In this document: positions 27,727 to 37,450 of the stretch, piece after piece
How positions within the stretch are numbered: position 1 is the first letter of the stretch
How the letters are laid out: the number at the start of each line of letters is the position of its first letter
Assembly (NCBI GenBank): GCA_016790075.1
Contig: JAEUPP010000061.1
Coordinates: 8,225 to 72,224 of the forward strand
DNA: 64,000 nt
Direction of reading: 5' to 3'
Source: Rhodanobacteraceae bacterium
GTDB lineage: Bacteria > Pseudomonadota > Gammaproteobacteria > Xanthomonadales > Rhodanobacteraceae
Translations under genes and position numbers: made by a program
Notes under the pieces: model-generated
Seen by the model: only the letters and a program-made list of their open reading frames with translations
Database searches by the model: none
Told to the model about the DNA's origin: nothing

Positions 27727-30474
27727 ATGCCGACTCTGGTGCTGATCGATGGGTCCAGCTATCTCTATCGCGCGTTTCATGCGTTGCCGCCGTTGAGCAA
27801 CGCAGCCGGTGAACCTACCGGTGCGCTGTTCGGCGTCGTCAATATGCTGCGTACGACACTCAAGGCCAAACCCGACTACGCCGCTTTCGTCTGCGATGCG
27901 TCGGGCCCGACATTTCGCGACGAGCTCTATCCCGCCTACAAGGCAAATCGACCGCCGATGCCCGACGAACTGCGTGCGCAGATCGAGCCCATGCTGGAGA
28001 TCGTCAGGGCACTGGGTTTTCCTATCCTGCGGGAAACCGGAGTCGAAGCCGACGATGTCATCGGTACGCTAGCGATTCAGGCCGCAGCACTCGGCATCGA
28101 GGTCATCGTCTCCACGGGCGACAAGGACATGGCCCAACTGGTCGGTCCGCACGTGACCCTGAGCAATACGATGACGAACACGACGCTCAACCCCGCCGGT
28201 GTATACGAAAAATTCGGCGTGCATCCAGCGCAGATCGTCGATTTTCTTGCGCTGATGGGGGATAGCGTCGACAACATTCCGGGAGTGGAGAAATGCGGAC
28301 CGAAAACCGCAGCGAAATGGCTGGCGGAATATCAGACGCTGGACAATCTGATGCAGAACGCCGGCAAGGTCAGCGGCAAGATCGGTGAAAACTTGCGTGC
28401 TGCGCTGCCGCAGCTACCGTTGTCGCGCCTGCTGGCGACCATCAAGACCGACGTCGCGCTGGCGCAAGGTCCTGCACAGCTGGCGCTGCGCGAGCGCGAT
28501 ACGGAAACACTGCGCGCGTTGTATACGCGTTACGGCTTCAATGCGGCACTCAAGGATCTGGACGGCGGCAGCGCGCTGGCGAGCGAAGAGCTGCGTGGCG
28601 CGAATGTACCTGCGCAGTTCCGCAAGCCGCCAGGCACTGACGCGTTGCTGGATCCGGCCCTGTCTGCGCCTGGCCAATACGACTGCATCACCGACATGCA
28701 GCAGTTCCAGCATTGGCTGCAGCGCCTGGAGCTGGCAGATATCGTCTCGTTCGATACGGAGACGACTTCGCTCGATCCGCTGCAGGCCGAAATCGTCGGT
28801 CTGTCGTTCGCCGTGCGGAGCGGCGAAGCAGCCTATGTGCCACTGAGGCACAACTACCCGGGCGCACCGACGCAACTCGACCGGGATACCGTACTCGGCG
28901 CCATGAAGCCGCTGCTTGAGGACGAGAACAAGCCCAAACTCGGCCAGCATGCCAAATACGACATCAACGTGCTGTCGCGCTACGGCATCACCGTGCGCGG
29001 CGTGAAGTTCGATTCCATGCTGGAGTCCTATGTCTGGAACTCGACAGCGACGCGCCACGACATGGACTCGCTCGCAAAACGGTATCTCGGCTACACGCCA
29101 ATTCCGTACGAGAACGTAGCCGGAAAGGGGGCCAAGCAGATTCCGTTCGGCCAGGTCGCGCTCGAACAGGCGACGAACTACGCGGCCGAAGACGCTGACG
29201 TTACCTTGCGCCTGCACCAGGTGCTCTGGAGCAAACTCGGCACCGAACCCAAGCTGCGTGAAGTTTATGAAGCGATAGAAGCACCACTGATTCCGGTACT
29301 TGCACGCATGGAACAGCGCGGCGTGCTTGTCGACATCCAGGCGCTGCGCCGGCAGAGCAACGAGCTTGCCAAACGCATGCACGAAATCCAGCAGCATGCC
29401 TACACCATCGCCGGACGCAGTTTCAGCCTCGACTCGCCCAAGCAACTGCAGGCCATCCTGTTCGACGAGCTGAAATTGCCTATTGTGGTGAAGACGCCGA
29501 CCGGGCAACCGTCGACCAACGAAGAGGCACTCGACGCCATTGCCGACCAGCACGAGCTGCCACGCCTGATCCTCGATTACCGCGGCCTGGCCAAGCTGCG
29601 CTCGACCTATACCGACAAGCTCGCCGACAACGTCAACCCGAATACCGGCCGCGTGCACACGAGTTACGGCCAGGCGATTGCCGCCACCGGGCGCTTGTCT
29701 TCGTCGGACCCCAACCTGCAGAACATCCCTATCCGCACCGAAGAGGGCCGACGCATCCGCCAGGCCTTTGTTGCACCGCCGGGATTTCGCATCCTCGCGG
29801 CCGACTACTCACAGATCGAACTGCGCATCATGGCGCACCTGTCGGGCGACGCAGGCCTGCTAAGCGCCTTCGTCAGCGGCCAGGACGTGCATCGCGCGAC
29901 CGCGGCCGAGGTTTTCGGCCTGCCTCCCGATCAGGTCGATGCCAACCAGCGCCGCGCCGCCAAGGCCATCAACTTCGGGCTGATGTATGGCATGGGTGCG
30001 TTCGGCCTGGCACGCCAGCTCGGCATTGCGCGCAACGAAGCCAACGACTACATCGCGCGGTATTTCGCGCGTTATCCCGGCGTGCGCCAGTTCATGGACG
30101 ATATCCGCGAACAGGCGCACCGGGACGGCTATGTCGAGACCGTGTTCGGACGGCGGCTTTATCTGGACGACATTCGCGCGCGCAATCCGAACCTGCGCGC
30201 AGGTGCCGAGCGTGCGGCGATCAACGCACCGATGCAGGGCACGGCCGCCGATATCATCAAGCGCGCGATGATCGCCGTCGACGCCTGGCTCGGAGACCGC
30301 ACGGACGCACGCATGTTGATGCAGGTGCATGACGAGCTGGTGCTGGAAGTGCGCGAGGAAGTAATAGACGAGGTCAGCACCGGCCTGCGCGGACGCATGA
30401 GCACCGCCGCGGAACTCGCCGTGCCGCTGGTCGTCGATATCGGCACCGGCGCGAACTGGGACGAAGCGCATTGA
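27727..30474 (+). CDS. polA: DNA polymerase I
   Basis: LIDGSSYLYRAFHA, DTETT, GRLSSSDPNLQNIP, ADYSQIELR, KAINFGLMYG, MQVHDELV. Confidence 0.99.
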   Translation: MPTLVLIDGSSYLYRAFHALPPLSNAAGEPTGALFGVVNMLRTTLKAKPDYAAFVCDASGPTFRDELYPAYKANRPPMPDELRAQIEPMLEIVRALGFPILRETGVEADDVIGTLAIQAAALGIEVIVSTGDKDMAQLVGPHVTLSNTMTNTTLNPAGVYEKFGVHPAQIVDFLALMGDSVDNIPGVEKCGPKTAAKWLAEYQTLDNLMQNAGKVSGKIGENLRAALPQLPLSRLLATIKTDVALAQGPAQLALRERDTETLRALYTRYGFNAALKDLDGGSALASEELRGANVPAQFRKPPGTDALLDPALSAPGQYDCITDMQQFQHWLQRLELADIVSFDTETTSLDPLQAEIVGLSFAVRSGEAAYVPLRHNYPGAPTQLDRDTVLGAMKPLLEDENKPKLGQHAKYDINVLSRYGITVRGVKFDSMLESYVWNSTATRHDMDSLAKRYLGYTPIPYENVAGKGAKQIPFGQVALEQATNYAAEDADVTLRLHQVLWSKLGTEPKLREVYEAIEAPLIPVLARMEQRGVLVDIQALRRQSNELAKRMHEIQQHAYTIAGRSFSLDSPKQLQAILFDELKLPIVVKTPTGQPSTNEEALDAIADQHELPRLILDYRGLAKLRSTYTDKLADNVNPNTGRVHTSYGQAIAATGRLSSSDPNLQNIPIRTEEGRRIRQAFVAPPGFRILAADYSQIELRIMAHLSGDAGLLSAFVSGQDVHRATAAEVFGLPPDQVDANQRRAAKAINFGLMYGMGAFGLARQLGIARNEANDYIARYFARYPGVRQFMDDIREQAHRDGYVETVFGRRLYLDDIRARNPNLRAGAERAAINAPMQGTAADIIKRAMIAVDAWLGDRTDARMLMQVHDELVLEVREEVIDEVSTGLRGRMSTAAELAVPLVVDIGTGANWDEAH

Positions 30475-30540
30475 GAAAACCTGCAATTCGTTGATTAAAA
30501 AGGCGATGAACGGTTTCTGAATCGATCTAGGCAAGGCTGC

Positions 30541-30564
30541 GAACCTTTCCTGCTCCAGCCCGTC
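30541..30564 (+). promoter_or_regulatory. Putative ECF-sigma promoter of sRNA copy 1
   Basis: GAAC-N16-CGTC; identical spacing in copy 2 (34285-34308). Confidence 0.5.
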
Positions 30565-30570
30565 TTAGCT

Positions 30571-30702
30571 ATCAGGTGCACGCAACGGCACCTGGTTCAT
30601 TCCCCTCCCTGGATGAGCCGCCGGAATCAGGTTCCTCCCCAGACCTGCTACCGTACCCCAGGCCCCGAAGGTCCTCCCCTGACCTTCGGGGCCTTTCTTT
30701 TT
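30571..30702 (+). ncRNA. Small RNA downstream of polA with three C-rich loops (sX13-like), copy 1
   Basis: Four hairpins; loops TCCCCTCCC, TCCTCCCC and CTCCCCT; last stem GGCCCCGAAGGTC/GACCTTCGGGGCC followed by a T-tract; position matches Xanthomonas sX13. Confidence 0.75.
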
Positions 30703-30860
30703 CGGGCTTGCGACAGCATTGCCCGGCTCCGCACGTGCCGCGGCCGGAAGGTTGGTTCGGACCGGCCCAAGCAGTGACGCTGACCGCGCTCCTGAGCTAT
30801 CGTCATCGCGCCCCGGCGCAGTCCGGTCCAGCGCGGAACCCGACACCCAGAGGAAGTGCC

Positions 30861-31139
30861 ATGCACGATGTCATCGAAGTTGACCTGGATCGGGTGCGGG
30901 CCATCATCACTGGACTCGAAGGTGATCGATTCTCAACCGCCGATGTCATTCGTGGATATTGCGGCGGTTTTTTTTCGAACGTGGCGACACCGGCCTACTA
31001 CTCGCTGAATGCGCAGTTTGGAAAGCTCCTGAGGCGCAACGCCGACTTCCTGCAGATAGCACACGATGAAGCGGATGTGCCGATTGCCGATGACCGCGAC
31101 CACAAGACCCGCTCATCATTCTGGCGGCGCAGAGCCTGA
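30861..31139 (+). CDS. Hypothetical protein (92 aa)
   Basis: AGAGGA RBS; MHDVIEVDLDRVRAIITGLEGDRFSTADVIRGY...NAQFGKLLRRN, helix-rich. Confidence 0.65.
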   Translation: MHDVIEVDLDRVRAIITGLEGDRFSTADVIRGYCGGFFSNVATPAYYSLNAQFGKLLRRNADFLQIAHDEADVPIADDRDHKTRSSFWRRRA

Positions 31140-31229
31140 CCCCGGGCTCGCCGCGGCAGCCTCCAGGCTGCCTCGTGCTGCCCGGACCTGTGCGTCAGAC
31201 TGCGGCTGCACACGTCAATAGGTTGCACC

Positions 31230-31784
31230 ATGCCATTCACCGGCACTCTTGACAGCTGGAACGACGACCGGGGCTTCGGCTTCATTGCTCCGGCGCATGG
31301 TGGCGTTCGAGTATTTGTCCACATCAGCGAATTTCCACGGAGCAGCACTCGCCCCCTCGTCGGAGAAAGGCTTGGCTACGAACTTGGACGCAGCGAGGAC
31401 GGAAGGCCGCGTGCCGTAAGGATTGTCCGCCTGACCGTCGACACGAAACGGCCCGTTAGCGCCTCTGTCACCAGATCGAAGAGAACCGGGCTCCCATGGC
31501 CGGGGATTCTTGTAGCCTTGATGCTCTTGGTCGCCCCCGGCCTCTTGATCTACGAGCACCTTGCTTCATTCTGGCGTCGCCAGTCACTTGCCGCCGAACC
31601 CGCCCCACTGGCCAGCCAGCGCATTCCCGCCCCACCTGCCGCGACATTTCAATGCGATGGAAGAACCCACTGCTCGCAGATGGCGTCCTGCGCGGAGGCA
31701 ACCTGGTTCATCAACAACTGCCCAGGCACCGCGATGGACGGTGATGGCGACGGTGTTCCCTGCGAGCGGCAGTGGTGCGAATAG
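31230..31784 (+). CDS. Cold-shock domain - TM - Excalibur calcium-binding domain protein
   Basis: WNDDRGFGFI...VFVHIS (RNP1/RNP2); TM ILVALMLLVAPGLL; CSQMASCAEA...MDGDGDGVPCE. Confidence 0.88.
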   Translation: MPFTGTLDSWNDDRGFGFIAPAHGGVRVFVHISEFPRSSTRPLVGERLGYELGRSEDGRPRAVRIVRLTVDTKRPVSASVTRSKRTGLPWPGILVALMLLVAPGLLIYEHLASFWRRQSLAAEPAPLASQRIPAPPAATFQCDGRTHCSQMASCAEATWFINNCPGTAMDGDGDGVPCERQWCE

Positions 31785-31804
31785 CCTGGGCGCCAGCGCC
31801 CAGG
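31785..31804. terminator. Hairpin after the CSD-Excalibur gene
   Basis: CCTGGGCGC-ca-GCGCCCAGG; no clear T-tract. Confidence 0.4.
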
Positions 31805-31977
31805 ACCGGTCCGATGGACCATCTTGCCCACCAGTCCCGGAAGCGGCACCAGGCGACGGGGCGGCGGTTGAAATTCCTCCCAGTCGAGGCGGCGCGAAAT
31901 GGCCCGGACGACCCGAAGGGGATGGCCCATCGCATGAAACGCGTCCTGGTCAAATTTGCAGGAAACCTCCAGCGAGG

Positions 31978-33567
31978 TCAGGGAGCCTGAAATCCGTTGG
32001 CGAACAATGCGTCCTGTATTGCCGCATACCAGCCGTCCGGCAGACGGATACGGAAAACATCTCCACGGCCATCGGTAAACCCCCAGTTTCCCGTGGTCCA
32101 GATGTTATGGCCCTGAAAATCCAGCGCCCCTGACCCCTCGGAGCGATAGTCGTAGTAGCGGTTGTAGGTCGAGCCCAACCGTATGATGGATGCGGGACTG
32201 CCCGACGCATCGCGAATCTGGACCAGCAGCCCCTGGTTTTTTCCCCAATGGCTGAAGCTCGTGTCGTAGCTGTTCATGTACAGCCAGCCGCGCTTTGCCC
32301 GATCGTAAACTTTTCCAAAATGCAAACCTATCGACCACGAACCACCATCAAGATCCGCATACGAAATCACCTTCGTACCGCAGGCATAGGAGTTTCCACT
32401 GATAACCTGGCACTGAGCAGTAGCTGCCGAGCGGATATCCACTGCCTCGATCCAATCGTTGCGGTTGTTCTGCGATACAAATAGCTCCTCGCCCGACATC
32501 CCCCAAGCCCATCCGGAATGCGTCTCGTCGGCAGCAATTCTGATCGGATCTGAAAACCCGGGGAGCAATGCCTTGGGCCCGTCGGCGATGGTTCCCAGGT
32601 CCGCATCCCGTTGACCGGGATACACACGGCCATAATGCAGGATCACGCGCGTGCCCAGAGGCGACATTTCGACCATATTCGGTCGCGACAGGTACGGCAG
32701 TGGTGCAGCCGGCGTGTTTGCTTCCACGCAAGGTGCCGGTGTACCGCTGCAGGACCGCTGCAGGCGCCCGGTAATCTGGTTGTTCACCCGGTCATACGTA
32801 ACTATCGCGTAGGGTTTGTAGCCGGAGCTGAGACTGGTATTCATCACCTGCCAGGCCCAGTACCGCGAATCGTTGCTCGAGTCACCTTCAACATCGTTCA
32901 TGATCTGCGCATCGGCAAACCCGGGGAAATCGGCACTGAAATCCCGTATCACGGTTGGGGCTGACTGGGCGCCGCTGACTGGATCAATGTCGACGTAGTA
33001 GAACGTCATGCCTGGATTTTCAGTGCCGACACGTTGCGAAGCAGGAAGCGAGCGGCCGACAAAATAGAGCCGGTATGGGTGTGCGCCGGAATAATCCCAG
33101 CGCAGCTCGTTGATCTCCCCCAGTGCGCGGGAAGCCTGCCCCAGCGATGGCTTGAAGCGCAGCACCGTCAGCATCGCGTTGTTGGATACGCGATAAATCC
33201 AGGCGCTGGTCGAATTTTCTCCATGCACGACAGCCAACTCGCCGGTCGTGTTGGTCGGCGTGAACCGGGAGTACACAATCAGCGACATGCCGCTCTGGGC
33301 AGAACCGTAGTCACCGGTCAGTTCGCTCTTGTCGGCGACACGCACGACCTGAAATCCTGTAACGGGATCGATCGTGACGCTTCCCTTGCCGGGATAAGTT
33401 CCCGGACTCGGTATCGGAATGACACGCCGATCGGTGATGAACTCCGTGGCTTGTGTCGATTCATACCAGCGCACTGGCCGCGCGTGTTGGTCGGCAAAAG
33501 CGGCCGCAGCAGCCAGCGTAGTGAAAATCCCTGCAGCAACCTGGCGCAACATGCATTTGTCGATCAT
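31978..33567 (-). CDS. Secreted beta-propeller-like protein with C-terminal DALFANGFQ motif
   Basis: Signal peptide ...TTLAAAAAFA; DPVTG..VVRVAD and YSRFTPTNTTG segments reminiscent of TolB/oligogalacturonate-lyase-like propellers (inference). Confidence 0.75.
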   Translation of the reverse strand: MIDKCMLRQVAAGIFTTLAAAAAFADQHARPVRWYESTQATEFITDRRVIPIPSPGTYPGKGSVTIDPVTGFQVVRVADKSELTGDYGSAQSGMSLIVYSRFTPTNTTGELAVVHGENSTSAWIYRVSNNAMLTVLRFKPSLGQASRALGEINELRWDYSGAHPYRLYFVGRSLPASQRVGTENPGMTFYYVDIDPVSGAQSAPTVIRDFSADFPGFADAQIMNDVEGDSSNDSRYWAWQVMNTSLSSGYKPYAIVTYDRVNNQITGRLQRSCSGTPAPCVEANTPAAPLPYLSRPNMVEMSPLGTRVILHYGRVYPGQRDADLGTIADGPKALLPGFSDPIRIAADETHSGWAWGMSGEELFVSQNNRNDWIEAVDIRSAATAQCQVISGNSYACGTKVISYADLDGGSWSIGLHFGKVYDRAKRGWLYMNSYDTSFSHWGKNQGLLVQIRDASGSPASIIRLGSTYNRYYDYRSEGSGALDFQGHNIWTTGNWGFTDGRGDVFRIRLPDGWYAAIQDALFANGFQAP

Positions 33568-33900
33568 TCCGGGCGTCCCTTATGTAAGCAACGGGCCAAG
33601 GCTTGTCTGGTGCTGAAACGATTGCTTCGTCACTGAACGGCATCGATGCCGCACTCGGCGCGAGGACACGGCAATCCGCAGCGGAAGGAACAACGGTAGG
33701 CGCTTCGGCCTGATCCTGGCGTGCGCGCTCTCACAAAACATATAAATTGATCATGCCGGAACCGGAACGCCGCTGAGCGGTACACCACTGAGCGACGCAG
33801 CACACGGTGCAACGTGCGCACAAGCCCGAATTCGGCTTTGATTGTTGGAACTCCAGTGAGTCACGGCGGTGACGCATGCCCGCTCTGAACCGCAGGCCCT

Positions 33901-34219
33901 CAGTTCGCGGATGACATCCGTGAACAGACTCGCCGCGACGGCTACGTCGGGACCGTGTTCAGAGGACGGCTTTACCTGGACGGCATTTGCGCACGCAATC
34001 CGGACCACGCGCAGGCGCTGTGCGTGCGGCGATGAATGCGCCGATGTGCGCAGGCTGATGCCGGTGCAAGACATGCTGGCACTGAAAGTACGCGAGGAAG
34101 AGGAAGTGACAGACGAGATCAGCACCGGTCTGTGCAAATGCGTGAGCACCGCCGCGGAACTCGCCGTGCCACTGGTCGTCGATATCCGCCCCGGAGTGAA
34201 CCGGGGCGAGGCGCACAGA
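33901..34219 (+). pseudogene. Degenerate duplicate of the polA 3' end
   Basis: Aligns by eye to 30088-30474 (e.g. GAGCACCGCCGCGGAACTCGCCGTGCC.CTGGTCGTCGATATC); about 70-nt internal deletion, many substitutions, stop TGA changed to AGA. Confidence 0.9.
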
Positions 34220-34314
34220 GAAATCGGCAACCTGTTGATTCAGAATGCGATGAACAGATTCTGAATCGATCCAGACAAGACTGCGAACCTTTCCTGCTCC
34301 AGTCCGTCCTAGCT

Positions 34315-34444
34315 ATCAGGTGCACGCAACGGCACCTGGTTCATTCCCCTCCCTGGATGAGCCACCGGAAACAGGTTCCTCCCCAGACCTGGCTCCGCAC
34401 CCCGACCTCGAAGACCCTCCCCTGGTCTTCGGGGTCTTTCTTCT
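34315..34444 (+). ncRNA. Second copy of the polA-linked C-rich sRNA
   Basis: 5' region nearly identical to 30571 onward; terminator stem GACCTCGAAGACC/GGTCTTCGGGGTC with compensatory changes. Confidence 0.75.
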
Positions 34445-34729
34445 GAGTCTTTAGATCTATCGCGCAGTGAATGCGGCGCTGATTTCGTACGAGGCTTGAG
34501 GGGCACGCACAGGACACAGCGCGACTCGATCGAGGAGATATCCTCGACATGGCGCTGCTCGTTGCAGTGCCATGGACCGGCGTTGCGGGCGCATGCTAGT
34601 TTGCACCGCGAATTTCCTGAACACGGGTAGATAACGGCGCGGTAACGGATGGATAACGCCGCGCAGAGCCGCGCTCTCCTGATCCGTGAACCGGCGTGCG
34701 GCTGCGCTGGCACCGCGCTACTAGCGCGT

Positions 34730-37450
34730 ATGAAAACTGATATCGATTCAGCCGAGCGGCATTCCTATAGCTATCGTTTCGGCAGCGCCGAATTCGACGA
34801 GGCGCGGTTTGAACTGCGCGTAGCCGGCCTGCCGGTTGATGTGGAGCGGCGCGCGCTCGAAGTGCTGGCCTATCTGCTGCGCCATGCCGGCGAGGTGGTA
34901 ACCAAGGAAGAACTGCTGCGCGAGGTCTGGGCCGGCCGCATTACGGTCGACAAGGTACTGCCCAACGCGATCAACAAGCTGCGCCGCGCCCTGGGCGAGG
35001 CCAATGCCGAACGCGTGCAGACCCAGGCGCGCATCGGCTACCGCCTCGACGGCACGATAGAACGTGTCGCCGTGGGGCGGCGGCTAGCCAGCCGGCTTGA
35101 GCTGGCGGCCGGCCAGTCCGTGCCGGCGCGCGATAATTTTCTGTTGCGGCGCCAGCTCGGCAGCAGCCGCGACAACGAGGTCTGGCTGGCCGAGCATGCC
35201 AAGACGCGCGAGAAGCGCGTCTACAAGTTCGGCGTTGATGGCGAGAGGCTACGTTCACTCAAGCGCGAGGCCACCTTGTCGCGCGTGCTGCAGGAAAGCC
35301 TCGACGACCGCCGGCATTTCGTCGACATCATCGACTGGAACTTCGAGAGTTCCCCGTTCTTTCTGGAATGCCAATACGGCGGAGAGAGCCTGCTGGAGTG
35401 GGCCGAACAGCACCTGGCCGCGTTGGGGATCGATGAACGCCTCGTGGTGTTTCTGCAGATCGCCGATGCGGTGGCAGCCGCACATAGCGTCGGCGTGCTG
35501 CACAAGGATCTCAAGCCCGCCAATGTACTGATCGCTGCGACGGAATCGGGCTGGCTGATACGCCTGACCGATTTTGGCAGCGGCCGCCTGCTCGATCCGG
35601 AGCGACTCGAAGCGCTGGGCATTACCCAGCTCGGCCTCACCGTTACGCAGAGCATCGCAACCGATTCGTCGACAGGCACGCCGCTCTATGTGGCGCCTGA
35701 GGTGTTCGCCGGCCATGCGCCGACGGTGCAGAGCGACGTTTTTGCGCTGGGAATATTGCTGTATCAGCTGTTGGCGGGCCGCCTCAACAAGCCTATGGCA
35801 TCGGGCTGGGAGCAGGACATCGCCGACGAACTGCTGCGCGAAGATGTCCGTCTGGCCACCGATGGCAATCCCGAGCGGCGGCTGGCGACTGCGGCGGAAC
35901 TCGCTCTGCGCCTGCGTGACCGTGAACGCCGCCGCCTGCAGATCGATGCGGCACGGCGCGACGAAGAGCAAGCGCGCAGCGCACGTGAAACCCTGGCGCG
36001 CAGCCGCGCGCGCCGGCCGTATCTGGTCGCGCTGATCACTGCCCTGGCCGTCAGCATCGCGGTAGTGCTCGTCCTGTACCGCACCGCAGTGAACGCGCGC
36101 AACACGGCACAACAGGAGCTCGACCGCGCTGCGGCGATCAATCGTTTTCTCAACGAAGACCTGATCGGACGCTCCAACCCGCTGGTCGTCGCCAAGGGAC
36201 AGAGCGCATCGATCAGGGATGTACTGCTTGCGGCGCGCGACCGCGTAGCGCAGCGCTTCAGCGCGCAGCCGCTGACCGAAGCAACGATCCGCACCAGTCT
36301 GACCACGCTGTTCAACATGATTGAACTGCTGCCTGAAGCAGAGGGCGAGGCGCGCCGCGCGCTTGCGCTATACGAAAGCCACGCCGGCGCGGCGAGCCGC
36401 GATGCGCTGAAAGCGCGTTCGCTGCTTGCGCGCCTGCTCACACGCACGGGCAAGATCGAAGAAGCACACAAGGAATTGCAGCGGCTGGATGAACTGACCG
36501 CAGCGATGGACGACCCGTATACGAAGTATTTGCGTGCCCATGCCTGGGGCATCTACTACATGAACCGGGGCGAGTACGCCAAGGGCGTGCCCGAATACCG
36601 CATTGCCATCCCCATATTGCGCGAAGCAGAGCCAGACAACGTCACCTTGCGCGATTCCATGCGCATGGATCTGATCGGAGGGCTGACCCAGGTAGGCGAT
36701 CTGGCTGGAGCGCGCGCCGAAGGTGCCGATCTGATTCGCGAAATCGGCACACGCGGAGACGACAACGGCCTGGTTGTCGCATTCGCAAAAGCGATGGTGG
36801 CGCGCACATATACCCTGGAGGGCGATCTTGCTACTGCCGAGTCGCAGCTTGTCGAGGCGCAGCAGACCATAGTCAACGTGCTCGGTGCCGCTCACACGCG
36901 CAATATCATGGTGCTCAGCGATCTTTTCGACATCGCTGTGCGCCGCGCCGACTGGCCCAGGGCACTAGCTTATGCCCAGCAAGTGCATGAGGGCGCGCTG
37001 GCCAAATTTGGGCCCGAGCACAATATCACTGCAGCAACGGCGATCAATTGGGGACAGGCACTGTTCGAGAGCGGCGATACAAAAACCGCAGAAGACAAGC
37101 TGCGACCATTCCGCGAGTTGCTCGCCGCCAAGCTTGGCCCAGAAAATCCACAAAGCCAGGTTGCCACCTATTGGCTTTGCGCCTTTGCGCTGGAGCAGCG
37201 CAAGGCGGACGAGGCCGCACGGCTTGTTGCGCTGCTGGATCCGGCGGCACTGGAAGGCGCCGGCGCCGATGGATTCTGGAAGCTGCGCGTCGACATGCTG
37301 CGTGGGTTGCTCGCGGCACAGCGCGGTGACGAGGCCGTGGCGGCAGAACTCCTCGCCTCAGCCGTGGATGGGCTGGCCAAGGCCGACGGAGGCCGCAGTC
37401 GCCTCTATGCCAATGCCCAACGCGCGCTGGGCCGTAGCCCCACGCCATGA
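34730..37450 (+). CDS. Winged-helix DNA-binding domain - Hanks-type Ser/Thr kinase - TM - TPR protein
   Basis: YRFGSAEFDE...KEELLREVW...INKLRRALG (OmpR-type wHTH); LHKDLKPANVLI, DFGSG, GTPLYVAPE, SDVFALG; TM helix; helical repeats. Confidence 0.9.
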   Translation: MKTDIDSAERHSYSYRFGSAEFDEARFELRVAGLPVDVERRALEVLAYLLRHAGEVVTKEELLREVWAGRITVDKVLPNAINKLRRALGEANAERVQTQARIGYRLDGTIERVAVGRRLASRLELAAGQSVPARDNFLLRRQLGSSRDNEVWLAEHAKTREKRVYKFGVDGERLRSLKREATLSRVLQESLDDRRHFVDIIDWNFESSPFFLECQYGGESLLEWAEQHLAALGIDERLVVFLQIADAVAAAHSVGVLHKDLKPANVLIAATESGWLIRLTDFGSGRLLDPERLEALGITQLGLTVTQSIATDSSTGTPLYVAPEVFAGHAPTVQSDVFALGILLYQLLAGRLNKPMASGWEQDIADELLREDVRLATDGNPERRLATAAELALRLRDRERRRLQIDAARRDEEQARSARETLARSRARRPYLVALITALAVSIAVVLVLYRTAVNARNTAQQELDRAAAINRFLNEDLIGRSNPLVVAKGQSASIRDVLLAARDRVAQRFSAQPLTEATIRTSLTTLFNMIELLPEAEGEARRALALYESHAGAASRDALKARSLLARLLTRTGKIEEAHKELQRLDELTAAMDDPYTKYLRAHAWGIYYMNRGEYAKGVPEYRIAIPILREAEPDNVTLRDSMRMDLIGGLTQVGDLAGARAEGADLIREIGTRGDDNGLVVAFAKAMVARTYTLEGDLATAESQLVEAQQTIVNVLGAAHTRNIMVLSDLFDIAVRRADWPRALAYAQQVHEGALAKFGPEHNITAATAINWGQALFESGDTKTAEDKLRPFRELLAAKLGPENPQSQVATYWLCAFALEQRKADEAARLVALLDPAALEGAGADGFWKLRVDMLRGLLAAQRGDEAVAAELLASAVDGLAKADGGRSRLYANAQRALGRSPTP

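Follow-up and report, generated by a model that had tools for sequence, protein, structure and literature searches.

A 64,000-nucleotide (nt) stretch of a Rhodanobacteraceae bacterium (contig JAEUPP010000061.1 of assembly GCA_016790075.1), hereafter the window, carries two genes for the small RNA (sRNA) sX13: sX13-1 lies directly behind polA, the gene for DNA polymerase I, and sX13-2 lies behind a decayed fragment of polA in a second copy of the region 3.8 kb away. We consider it likely that this is a duplicated sX13 whose accompanying polA fragment is decaying while selection keeps the second RNA, which is most likely transcribed. The value of the locus lies in that fragment, which comes from the same event, sits about 100 nt from the RNA gene and serves as a neutral yardstick. 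Such a yardstick is rare for bacterial sRNAs and allows selection on a non-coding gene to be measured without an assumption about the mutation rate.

The repeated unit occupies 30088 to 30702 of the forward strand, where it holds the last 129 codons of polA, the intergenic region and sX13-1, and it recurs in direct orientation at 33901 to 34444, as the preliminary description of this DNA had stated. Mean identity is 85% in a pairwise MAFFT alignment, and a repeat search finds six collinear blocks (30088-30193/33901-34006, 82%; 30196-30234/34008-34046, 85%; 30299-30361/34038-34100, 76%; 30355-30478/34100-34223, 85%; 30477-30659/34221-34403, 89%; 30657-30699/34400-34442, 81%). The left edge of the repeat is sharp, at 30087/33900, and the right edge falls directly past the T-tract of the sX13 terminator, at about 30700/34443. 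Along the unit, pairwise identity is 81.8% in the polA part, 80.0% in the first half of the intergenic region, 92.5% in its second half, which is the promoter block, and 88.6% in sX13 (91.7% in stem-loops 1 and 2, 83.3% in the terminator stem-loop). The earlier statement that the promoter segment and the RNA are almost unchanged is overstated for the pairwise comparison, and it stands for the copy 2 lineage, in which 4 of 167 sites have changed.

The complete polA (27727 to 30474, forward strand) encodes an intact 915-residue DNA polymerase I with the Pfam DNA_pol_A, 5'-3' exonuclease and 3'-5' exonuclease domains. Because this protein is 87-91% identical to Tahibacter PolA proteins, we assign the host to Tahibacter sp. 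(Rhodanobacteraceae). The same DNA is present in bioreactor metagenomes. The second copy of the polA end, at 33901 to 34219 on the same strand, is a pseudogene fragment. The many substitutions, the deletion of about 70 nt and the missing stop codon noted previously are all present: the deletion measures 73 nt (30234-30306 of copy 1), and the stop TGA (30472-30474) has become AGA (34217-34219). Additionally, one nucleotide is deleted (opposite 30194), the first part of the remnant meets a premature stop once its frame has shifted, six nucleotides have been inserted as a tandem GAGGAA (34094-34099), and the catalytic motif QVHDE reads PVQDM. Substitutions in the remnant fall 17, 14 and 25 times at the three codon positions, with 29 nonsynonymous and 19 synonymous codon changes, a pattern as expected of a fragment dead since the copies split. 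Beyond the remnant, copy 2 lacks one nucleotide in the intergenic region and another at the foot of the terminator stem.

Does selection keep the second RNA while the polA fragment beside it decays, as the preliminary description held? We used nine Tahibacter orthologues as outgroups in an 11-sequence alignment that includes both window copies, and the two window copies form a clade against the nine with neighbour-joining bootstrap support of 100% in the polA part and 83% in the intergenic region plus sX13. On the copy 2 lineage, the 310 sites of the polA part have accumulated 37 changes, whereas the 124 sites of sX13, counted from its 5' hairpin, have accumulated 3 (Fisher p = 0.0014), and promoter block plus sX13 together 4 in 167 sites (p = 0.0002); the copy 1 lineage shows 7, 8 and 8 changes in these same segments. 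With four outgroups instead of nine the contrast is 39/310 versus 3/113 (p = 0.0015), and the ratio of copy 1 to copy 2 changes also differs between polA (7:37) and sX13 (8:3; p = 0.0006). In other words, the rate of change in sX13-2 is roughly one fifth of that in the neutral DNA some 100 nt away. The earlier description had itself asked whether the second RNA has diverged as much as the polA remnant; in this formal alignment it has not, and the counts support its view that selection holds the second sX13 copy. Within the 3' 79 nt of sX13, copy 1 departs from the outgroups at 8 sites, and copy 2 has 3 changes where 9.4 are expected (Poisson p = 0.016). Since copy 1 diverged in this 3' half of the RNA and copy 2 matches the outgroups there, we reject for this half the idea that gene conversion from copy 1 has conserved copy 2. 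For sX13-1, 8 changes in 124 sites are not significantly below the neutral rate (p = 0.12), and its four terminator-stem changes keep or strengthen pairing; the difference between 8 and 3 changes in the two RNAs is not significant alone (p = 0.23).

Both RNAs are members of a known family, sX13 (Rfam RF02232), by their covariance-model matches; the polA-linked RNA is thus not an unknown one, having been described in Xanthomonas (PMC3771888). sX13-1 (30574 to 30698, forward strand, with a predicted 5' end) comprises a 5' hairpin, two C-rich stem-loops and a terminator stem-loop, and sX13-2 (34318 to 34441, forward strand), whose sequence is near the ancestral one, has the same architecture. Against Rfam the two give full-length model matches of 51.6 bits (30584-30698) and 52.1 bits (34328-34441), the gathering score being 50; against our own covariance model, built from Tahibacter sX13 sequences, they score 147.6 bits (30574-30702) and 137.2 bits. 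The predicted folds are stable (-61.1 kcal/mol, z = -6.2, for sX13-1; -59.3 kcal/mol, z = -6.4, for sX13-2), with the order 5' hairpin, stem-loop 1, stem-loop 2, terminator stem-loop in both copies and with the same predicted loops: UCCCCUCC in stem-loop 1, CCUCCCCA in stem-loop 2 and CUCCCCU in the terminator. A small internal loop is predicted in stem-loop 2 of both copies. The intrinsic terminators, each followed by a T-tract, lie on the forward strand at 30660 to 30702 (14-bp stem) and 34404 to 34443 (13-bp stem). sX13-1 begins about 100 nt past the polA stop on the same strand and sX13-2 equally far past the pseudogene fragment, which suggests that the polA linkage of copy 2 is kept as a fossil. 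The two genes are homologous at 88.6% identity and each has a presumed promoter and a terminator of its own, as sibling sRNA genes do.

Two further features of the RNAs deserve mention. In copy 1, stem-loop 2 has a remodelled 3' arm after three neighbouring changes (30648-30650, GCU to CUA), which give a form that resembles the UUA of T. aquaticus. A conserved palindrome at 30574-30593/34318-34337, AGGTGC..GCACCT in Tahibacter, spans the 5' end of the Rfam model and recurs at homologous sites in other genera as ACAGGCG..CGCCTGT (L002, L003, L019); it may serve as a DNA operator or, provided that the transcript begins some 10 nt before the Rfam start, form a hairpin at the 5' end of the RNA.

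The terminator stem is where the earlier notion of compensatory evolution can be examined pair by pair. The stem had been described exactly: three pairs differ on both sides between the copies, one pair is C-G in one and U.G in the other, and the loop CUCCCCU is identical. All seven substitutions are transitions that keep pairing. Once the changes are polarized, compensation in the second copy stands for one pair, 30671-30683/34414-34426, which is G-C in copy 1 and all outgroups and A-U in copy 2 and is the sole true double change in copy 2. The remaining pairs tell of other histories: 30662-30692/34405-34435 is A-U in eight of the nine outgroups as well as in copy 2, and became G-C by a double change in copy 1; 30665-30689/34408-34432 was ancestrally U.G, as copy 2 still is, and became C-G in copy 1; and 30672-30682/34415-34425, U-A in copy 1 and C-G in copy 2, occurs as U.G, C-G and U-A among relatives and moved one step per lineage through the wobble pair. 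Two of the three copy 2 changes in sX13 thus form the compensatory pair 34414/34426, and the third (34371) lies in the 5' arm of stem-loop 2. In a covariation analysis of the kind that the preliminary description had proposed, 97.7% of cells are paired in the consensus structure of the 11 Tahibacter sequences, and nine pairs have changed on both sides, compared with 2.4 +/- 1.2 in shuffled alignments (0 of 500 reach the observed value); slid controls collapse. The sX13 structure is well supported across the genus by these comparisons.

Upstream of each RNA lie a promoter-like box and further conserved blocks. The box reads CGAACCT, 15 nt, GTCTTA before sX13-1 (30540 to 30567) and CGAACCT, 15 nt, GTCCTA before sX13-2 (34284 to 34311), both on the forward strand, and none of the 11 Tahibacter sequences departs from CTGCGAACCTTT or CGTC. 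With a published sigma-E consensus of GGAACTT at -35 and GTC at -10 (PMC6648896), the box resembles a sigma-E-type promoter in both copies, and transcription from it would begin near 30574/34318, at the base of the 5' hairpin. Similar boxes occur upstream of sX13 in Stenotrophomonas, Lysobacter, Luteimonas and Solimonas; we offer a sigma-E-type promoter as a hypothesis for sX13. Farther upstream, the blocks TTGATT, ATGAAC and TTCTGAATCGA (30491 to 30525 and 34235-34269, forward strand) form invariant or nearly invariant columns of the 11-sequence alignment and are kept in nearly all Tahibacter orthologues despite the variable spacer around them; they may be binding sites for a regulator.

How does the locus compare with its relatives? 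We collected ten Tahibacter loci (L081-L087, L093-L095) through PolA homologues and a DNA pattern. In all ten, polA is followed by a single sX13 and then by a conserved SDR / Sacchrp_dh / UPF0114 / UvrD block, and the Tahibacter covariance model finds no second sX13 copy in any of them. The nearest PolA, 91% identical, comes from a single-copy locus, and a metagenome scan with an invariant 42-mer returned just two loci, both single-copy. Among the matches listed in a scan of genome contigs with the PolA C-terminus, most belonged to distant taxa. Synteny with the ten relatives runs through copy 1 and stops at 30700-30706, the end of the sX13-1 terminator; neither blastn nor tblastx detects the SDR/Sacchrp_dh/UPF0114/UvrD block in any part of the window, and a tblastx comparison of the downstream 33 kb with the relatives' flanks gave noise only. 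Synteny with a different locus of the relatives, a wHTH-Ser/Thr kinase-TPR gene and YjbR, begins at about 34554, some 110 bp past sX13-2. In the window the kinase gene (Pfam assignment) lies at 34649 to 37450 on the forward strand, and its orthologues are 76-83% identical; no sX13-like sequence was found upstream of the kinase gene in the relatives' loci L088-L091. The 3' end of sX13 looks like a hot spot of rearrangement or insertion.

The 3.2 kb between the copies (30703 to 33900) is absent from the relatives at the same position and looks foreign. Its GC content is 0.576-0.594 at 32-34 kb, compared with 0.615-0.65 in the flanks, and the sole open reading frame in the segment that passes the GC3 filter is one for 93 residues (31649-31930). 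Its annotated genes are a cold-shock domain fused to an Excalibur calcium-binding domain (31230-31784, forward strand, Pfam) and, on the reverse strand at 31978-33567, a gene for a 529-residue protein without Pfam domains, from a widespread and uncharacterised family in which some proteins carry added Ig-like or InlB B-repeat domains. The best homologues of the 529-residue protein are at most 74% identical, and among the top half of its matches those that are named come from Burkholderiales, other phyla ranking lower; the best one adjoins IS66 in another organism, which says little on origin. Orthology with the 538-residue gene product that precedes the kinase in relatives would have made copy 2 an insertion into an old intergenic region, and it is rejected, BLASTP finding no homology. 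No integrase or transposase domains were found in the scanned reading frames between or downstream of the copies, and no terminal inverted repeats in or around the insert. An integrative element that duplicated its att site at the 3' end of an RNA gene was also considered and set aside: no integrase was found, and a repeat of 615 bp that is 85% identical and begins inside polA misfits such a duplication.

We propose the following course of events. A 615-bp piece of the chromosome, comprising the last 129 polA codons, the intergenic sX13 promoter, sX13 and its terminator, would have been duplicated, after which the truncated polA piece, being functionless, would have drifted. The promoter-like box, four hairpins, three C-rich loops and terminator of sX13-2 would have been kept by purifying selection, most likely because the gene is transcribed as a second sX13 RNA. 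Both RNAs may, as Xanthomonas sX13 does, repress mRNAs with G-rich motifs near the start codon without Hfq, pairing with them through the apical C-rich loops; these loops are identical in the two copies and their targets should therefore coincide. Copy 2 would probably raise the dosage of the regulator or supply it under separate control. Copy 1, behind polA, could receive polA read-through and has a diverged upstream spacer, and copy 2 sits behind a divergently transcribed gene. As to origin, the unit may have been duplicated in tandem, foreign DNA then being inserted at the terminator end, where synteny breaks, or repeat and cargo may have been imported together by a single crossover or by homology-facilitated illegitimate recombination; both options fit.

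Several observations weigh against a selected second RNA. The counts are small, with 3 or 4 events on the copy 2 sX13 lineage, and the duplication is known from one genome or population only. The Rfam scores exceed the threshold by just 1.6-2.1 bits, although low scores are genus-wide and not specific to copy 2. In stem-loop 2, two neighbouring pairs of copy 2 are non-standard (A.C and A.G), as are two in copy 1; the folded single-copy orthologues L081 and L084 have an unbroken stem there, and non-standard pairs in helix 3 are scarce over the whole 11-sequence alignment. The -10-like hexamer of copy 2 carries one substitution, T to C, a variant also seen in the single-copy gene of T. amnicola (L095), and the sigma-E reading of the promoter comes from consensus resemblance. 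Searches for RNA-seq runs turned up none that contain this organism, and when four metatranscriptomes were compared with the window, the matches were to sX13 of related organisms only. In the bioreactor metatranscriptome X14, a 253-nt contig of a related organism covers an sX13 homologue (window 34304-34441, 12 mismatches with copy 2); this contig runs 105 nt upstream of the homologue, through the promoter box, and is therefore not clean evidence for a transcription start, being either read-through from polA or DNA carry-over.

Could sX13-2 be a dead relic, conserved by chance, by a locally low mutation rate or by gene conversion from copy 1? The small counts, the two mismatches in copy 2 stem-loop 2 and the metatranscriptome matches from relatives only would suit such a relic, as would the identity of the first 46 nt of sX13 in the two copies and a promoter spacer that differs at 2 of 25 sites. 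We nevertheless judge it improbable, since the rate contrast is significant in each of its forms (p = 0.0002 to 0.0015), none of the nine orthologues varies in the identical 5' part, whose identity is therefore explained by constraint, the copies differ at 11 or more sites in the 3' half, with copy 2 matching the outgroups, which leaves no room for conversion from copy 1 there, and a compensatory pair making up two of three changes is not predicted by neutral decay. Still less credible is a role of copy 2 at the DNA level or in cis, as a terminator or insulator that separates the divergent 529-residue gene from the kinase gene, or as the 5' leader or promoter of the latter, which lies 205 nt downstream. 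Copy 2 does lie in a 1.08-kb divergent intergenic region just upstream of that gene, on the same strand, and has kept a strong terminator, but relatives have only 156-236 bp there with no sX13-like sequence found, which indicates that the kinase gene needs none, and a terminator function would not keep the C-rich loops of stem-loops 1 and 2, the 5' hairpin and the promoter box, all of which are unchanged. The chance that the locus is an assembly artefact, in which the polA-sX13 regions of two strains were fused in one metagenomic contig, is negligible in our estimate, despite a metagenome-type assembly and low coverage in public runs. Contigs assembled separately from independent runs of one study match the junctions 30661-30970, 33873-34094 and 34533-34938 at 100%; moreover, the second polA piece, truncated, frameshifted and rich in nonsynonymous changes, is not another strain's working polA. 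On these two grounds misassembly is very unlikely, as the preliminary description had also thought.

An import deserves more weight, although we remain doubtful of it: a fragment or circle from a close relative, carrying a polA 3' end, sX13 and the 3.2-kb cargo, would have recombined into the resident region by a Campbell-type single crossover or by homology-facilitated illegitimate recombination, in which case some of the divergence, part of the stem covariation included, would predate the event. The layout of repeat, cargo and repeat fits, as does the foreign look of the cargo, with its lower GC content, its single 93-residue frame through the GC3 filter and its 529-residue gene whose nearest named relatives are Burkholderiales; so does the position of the copies, neither of which precedes the genus-typical SDR-Sacchrp_dh-UPF0114-UvrD genes, while synteny with the relatives' wHTH-kinase locus sets in about 110 bp past copy 2. 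On the other side, the remnant is pseudogene-like over nearly its whole branch since the split, with 37 changes compared with 7 and a mild third-position enrichment, and the window polA shows no shift of affinity along its length. A mosaic polA as a sign of import is in fact rejected, identity to relatives being even over the whole gene. At the time of the event, then, a donor would have had to be almost identical. Furthermore, integrase, transposase and terminal repeats were not found at the locus, and import concerns origin only; the rate contrast of copy 2 stands either way.

Within the reading that selection retains sX13-2, the two copies might have taken asymmetric roles. The ectopic copy 2 would be the constrained "master" with the ancestral sequence, and copy 1, changing about 2.7 times faster, with a remodelled stem-loop 2 and a tightened terminator, would be in early sub- or neofunctionalisation, possibly under a sigma-E-type promoter. 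We put this forward tentatively and think it rather unlikely; if true, the divergence would be datable, with the co-duplicated polA fragment as an internal neutral clock.

Beyond Tahibacter, the Tahibacter covariance model detects a single sX13-like RNA about 90-950 nt past polA, on the same strand, in Rhodanobacter, Arenimonas, Denitratimonas, Wenzhouxiangella, Steroidobacteraceae and an uncultured gammaproteobacterium (L001:11152-11278, L004:11069-11198, L006:11259-11392, L008:11726-11847, L009:4088-4207, L015:11727-11846, L030:2045-2164, L052:11061-11183, L056:6290-6405, L057:11065-11178). Three of these loci (L001, L004, L006) were also scanned with Rfam, and all three stayed below its gathering score. 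A metagenome-assembled genome of Solimonas sp. has two tandem sX13-like genes after polA (L079:3597-3715 and L079:3809-3924, period 212 nt; 30.1 and 34.6 bits with model R1), each preceded by TTGAACTT, N16, CATCTAATC, a close look-alike of the sigma-E/AlgU promoter consensus. By its sequence, the Solimonas pair goes back to a separate duplication of the polA-linked sRNA and includes no polA fragment. sX13 has been described as exclusively Xanthomonadaceae (PMC3771888), and the family appears wider than that; we would correct its range to include positions after polA in Rhodanobacteraceae, Steroidobacteraceae, Wenzhouxiangella and Solimonas.

The closest known system is sX13 of Xanthomonas campestris pv. 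vesicatoria, a 115-nt sRNA whose flanks vary and which was reported as "always located downstream of polA" (Schmidtke et al. 2013, PMC3771888); it is described as single-copy and constitutively expressed and acts as a global post-transcriptional regulator, independent of Hfq, with C-rich loops and G-rich mRNA targets (PMC3771888). The Tahibacter RNAs share with it the covariance-model match, the place downstream of polA on the same strand, strong conservation amid variable flanks and, by prediction, three stem-loops with apical C-rich loops (CCCC; 4C/5C), the last of which is the terminator. Unlike it, they come as two copies, the second beside a polA pseudogene fragment at the junction with another locus; Tahibacter, of the Rhodanobacteraceae, is not among the genera listed in 2013, its RNAs score near the Rfam threshold, and they may bear an extra 5' hairpin. 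That sRNA has been described as a single gene linked to polA; the locus shows that it can be duplicated and that a genome can retain the extra copy. Other sRNA genes that adjoin polA are Spot 42 (spf) of E. coli and the alpha-r7 sRNAs (PMC3771888). They are likewise encoded directly downstream of polA, but they have no sequence similarity to sX13; Spot 42 is Hfq-dependent and CRP-controlled, and no duplication of Spot 42 or alpha-r7 with a polA fragment appears in the literature searched. In their promoter-like boxes, the Tahibacter genes (CGAACCT, 15 nt, GTCTTA) and the Solimonas genes (TTGAACTT, N16, CATCTAA) resemble the consensus (-35 GGAACTT, -10 GTC) of the sigma-E-dependent sRNAs MicA, RybB and MicL (PMC6648896, PMC4102768), a likeness at the level of sequence, whereas Xanthomonas sX13 is described as constitutive (PMC3771888).

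As a kind, paralogous sRNAs are well known, for example Qrr1-4 of Vibrio (PMC3771888), the CcsR or "cuckoo" RNAs RSs0680a-d and the multi-copy SmelA075 family (PMC4615179). What was suspected to be new therefore holds in part: no duplicated sX13 is reported in the literature searched, and sibling sRNAs, like the Solimonas tandem pair, make this a clean but not unprecedented sRNA gene duplication that reveals no new mechanism and has the modest practical value of a test case for the evolution of sRNA paralogues. Like those siblings, the two Tahibacter genes are homologues within a single genome; each has a promoter-like box and a terminator of its own, and they share the same seed or loop motifs, so that redundant or additive regulation would be expected. 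Unlike them, the pair is known here from sequence and consists of just two copies with no tandem array, and its origin is still visible in a co-duplicated gene fragment that acts as a built-in neutral clock.

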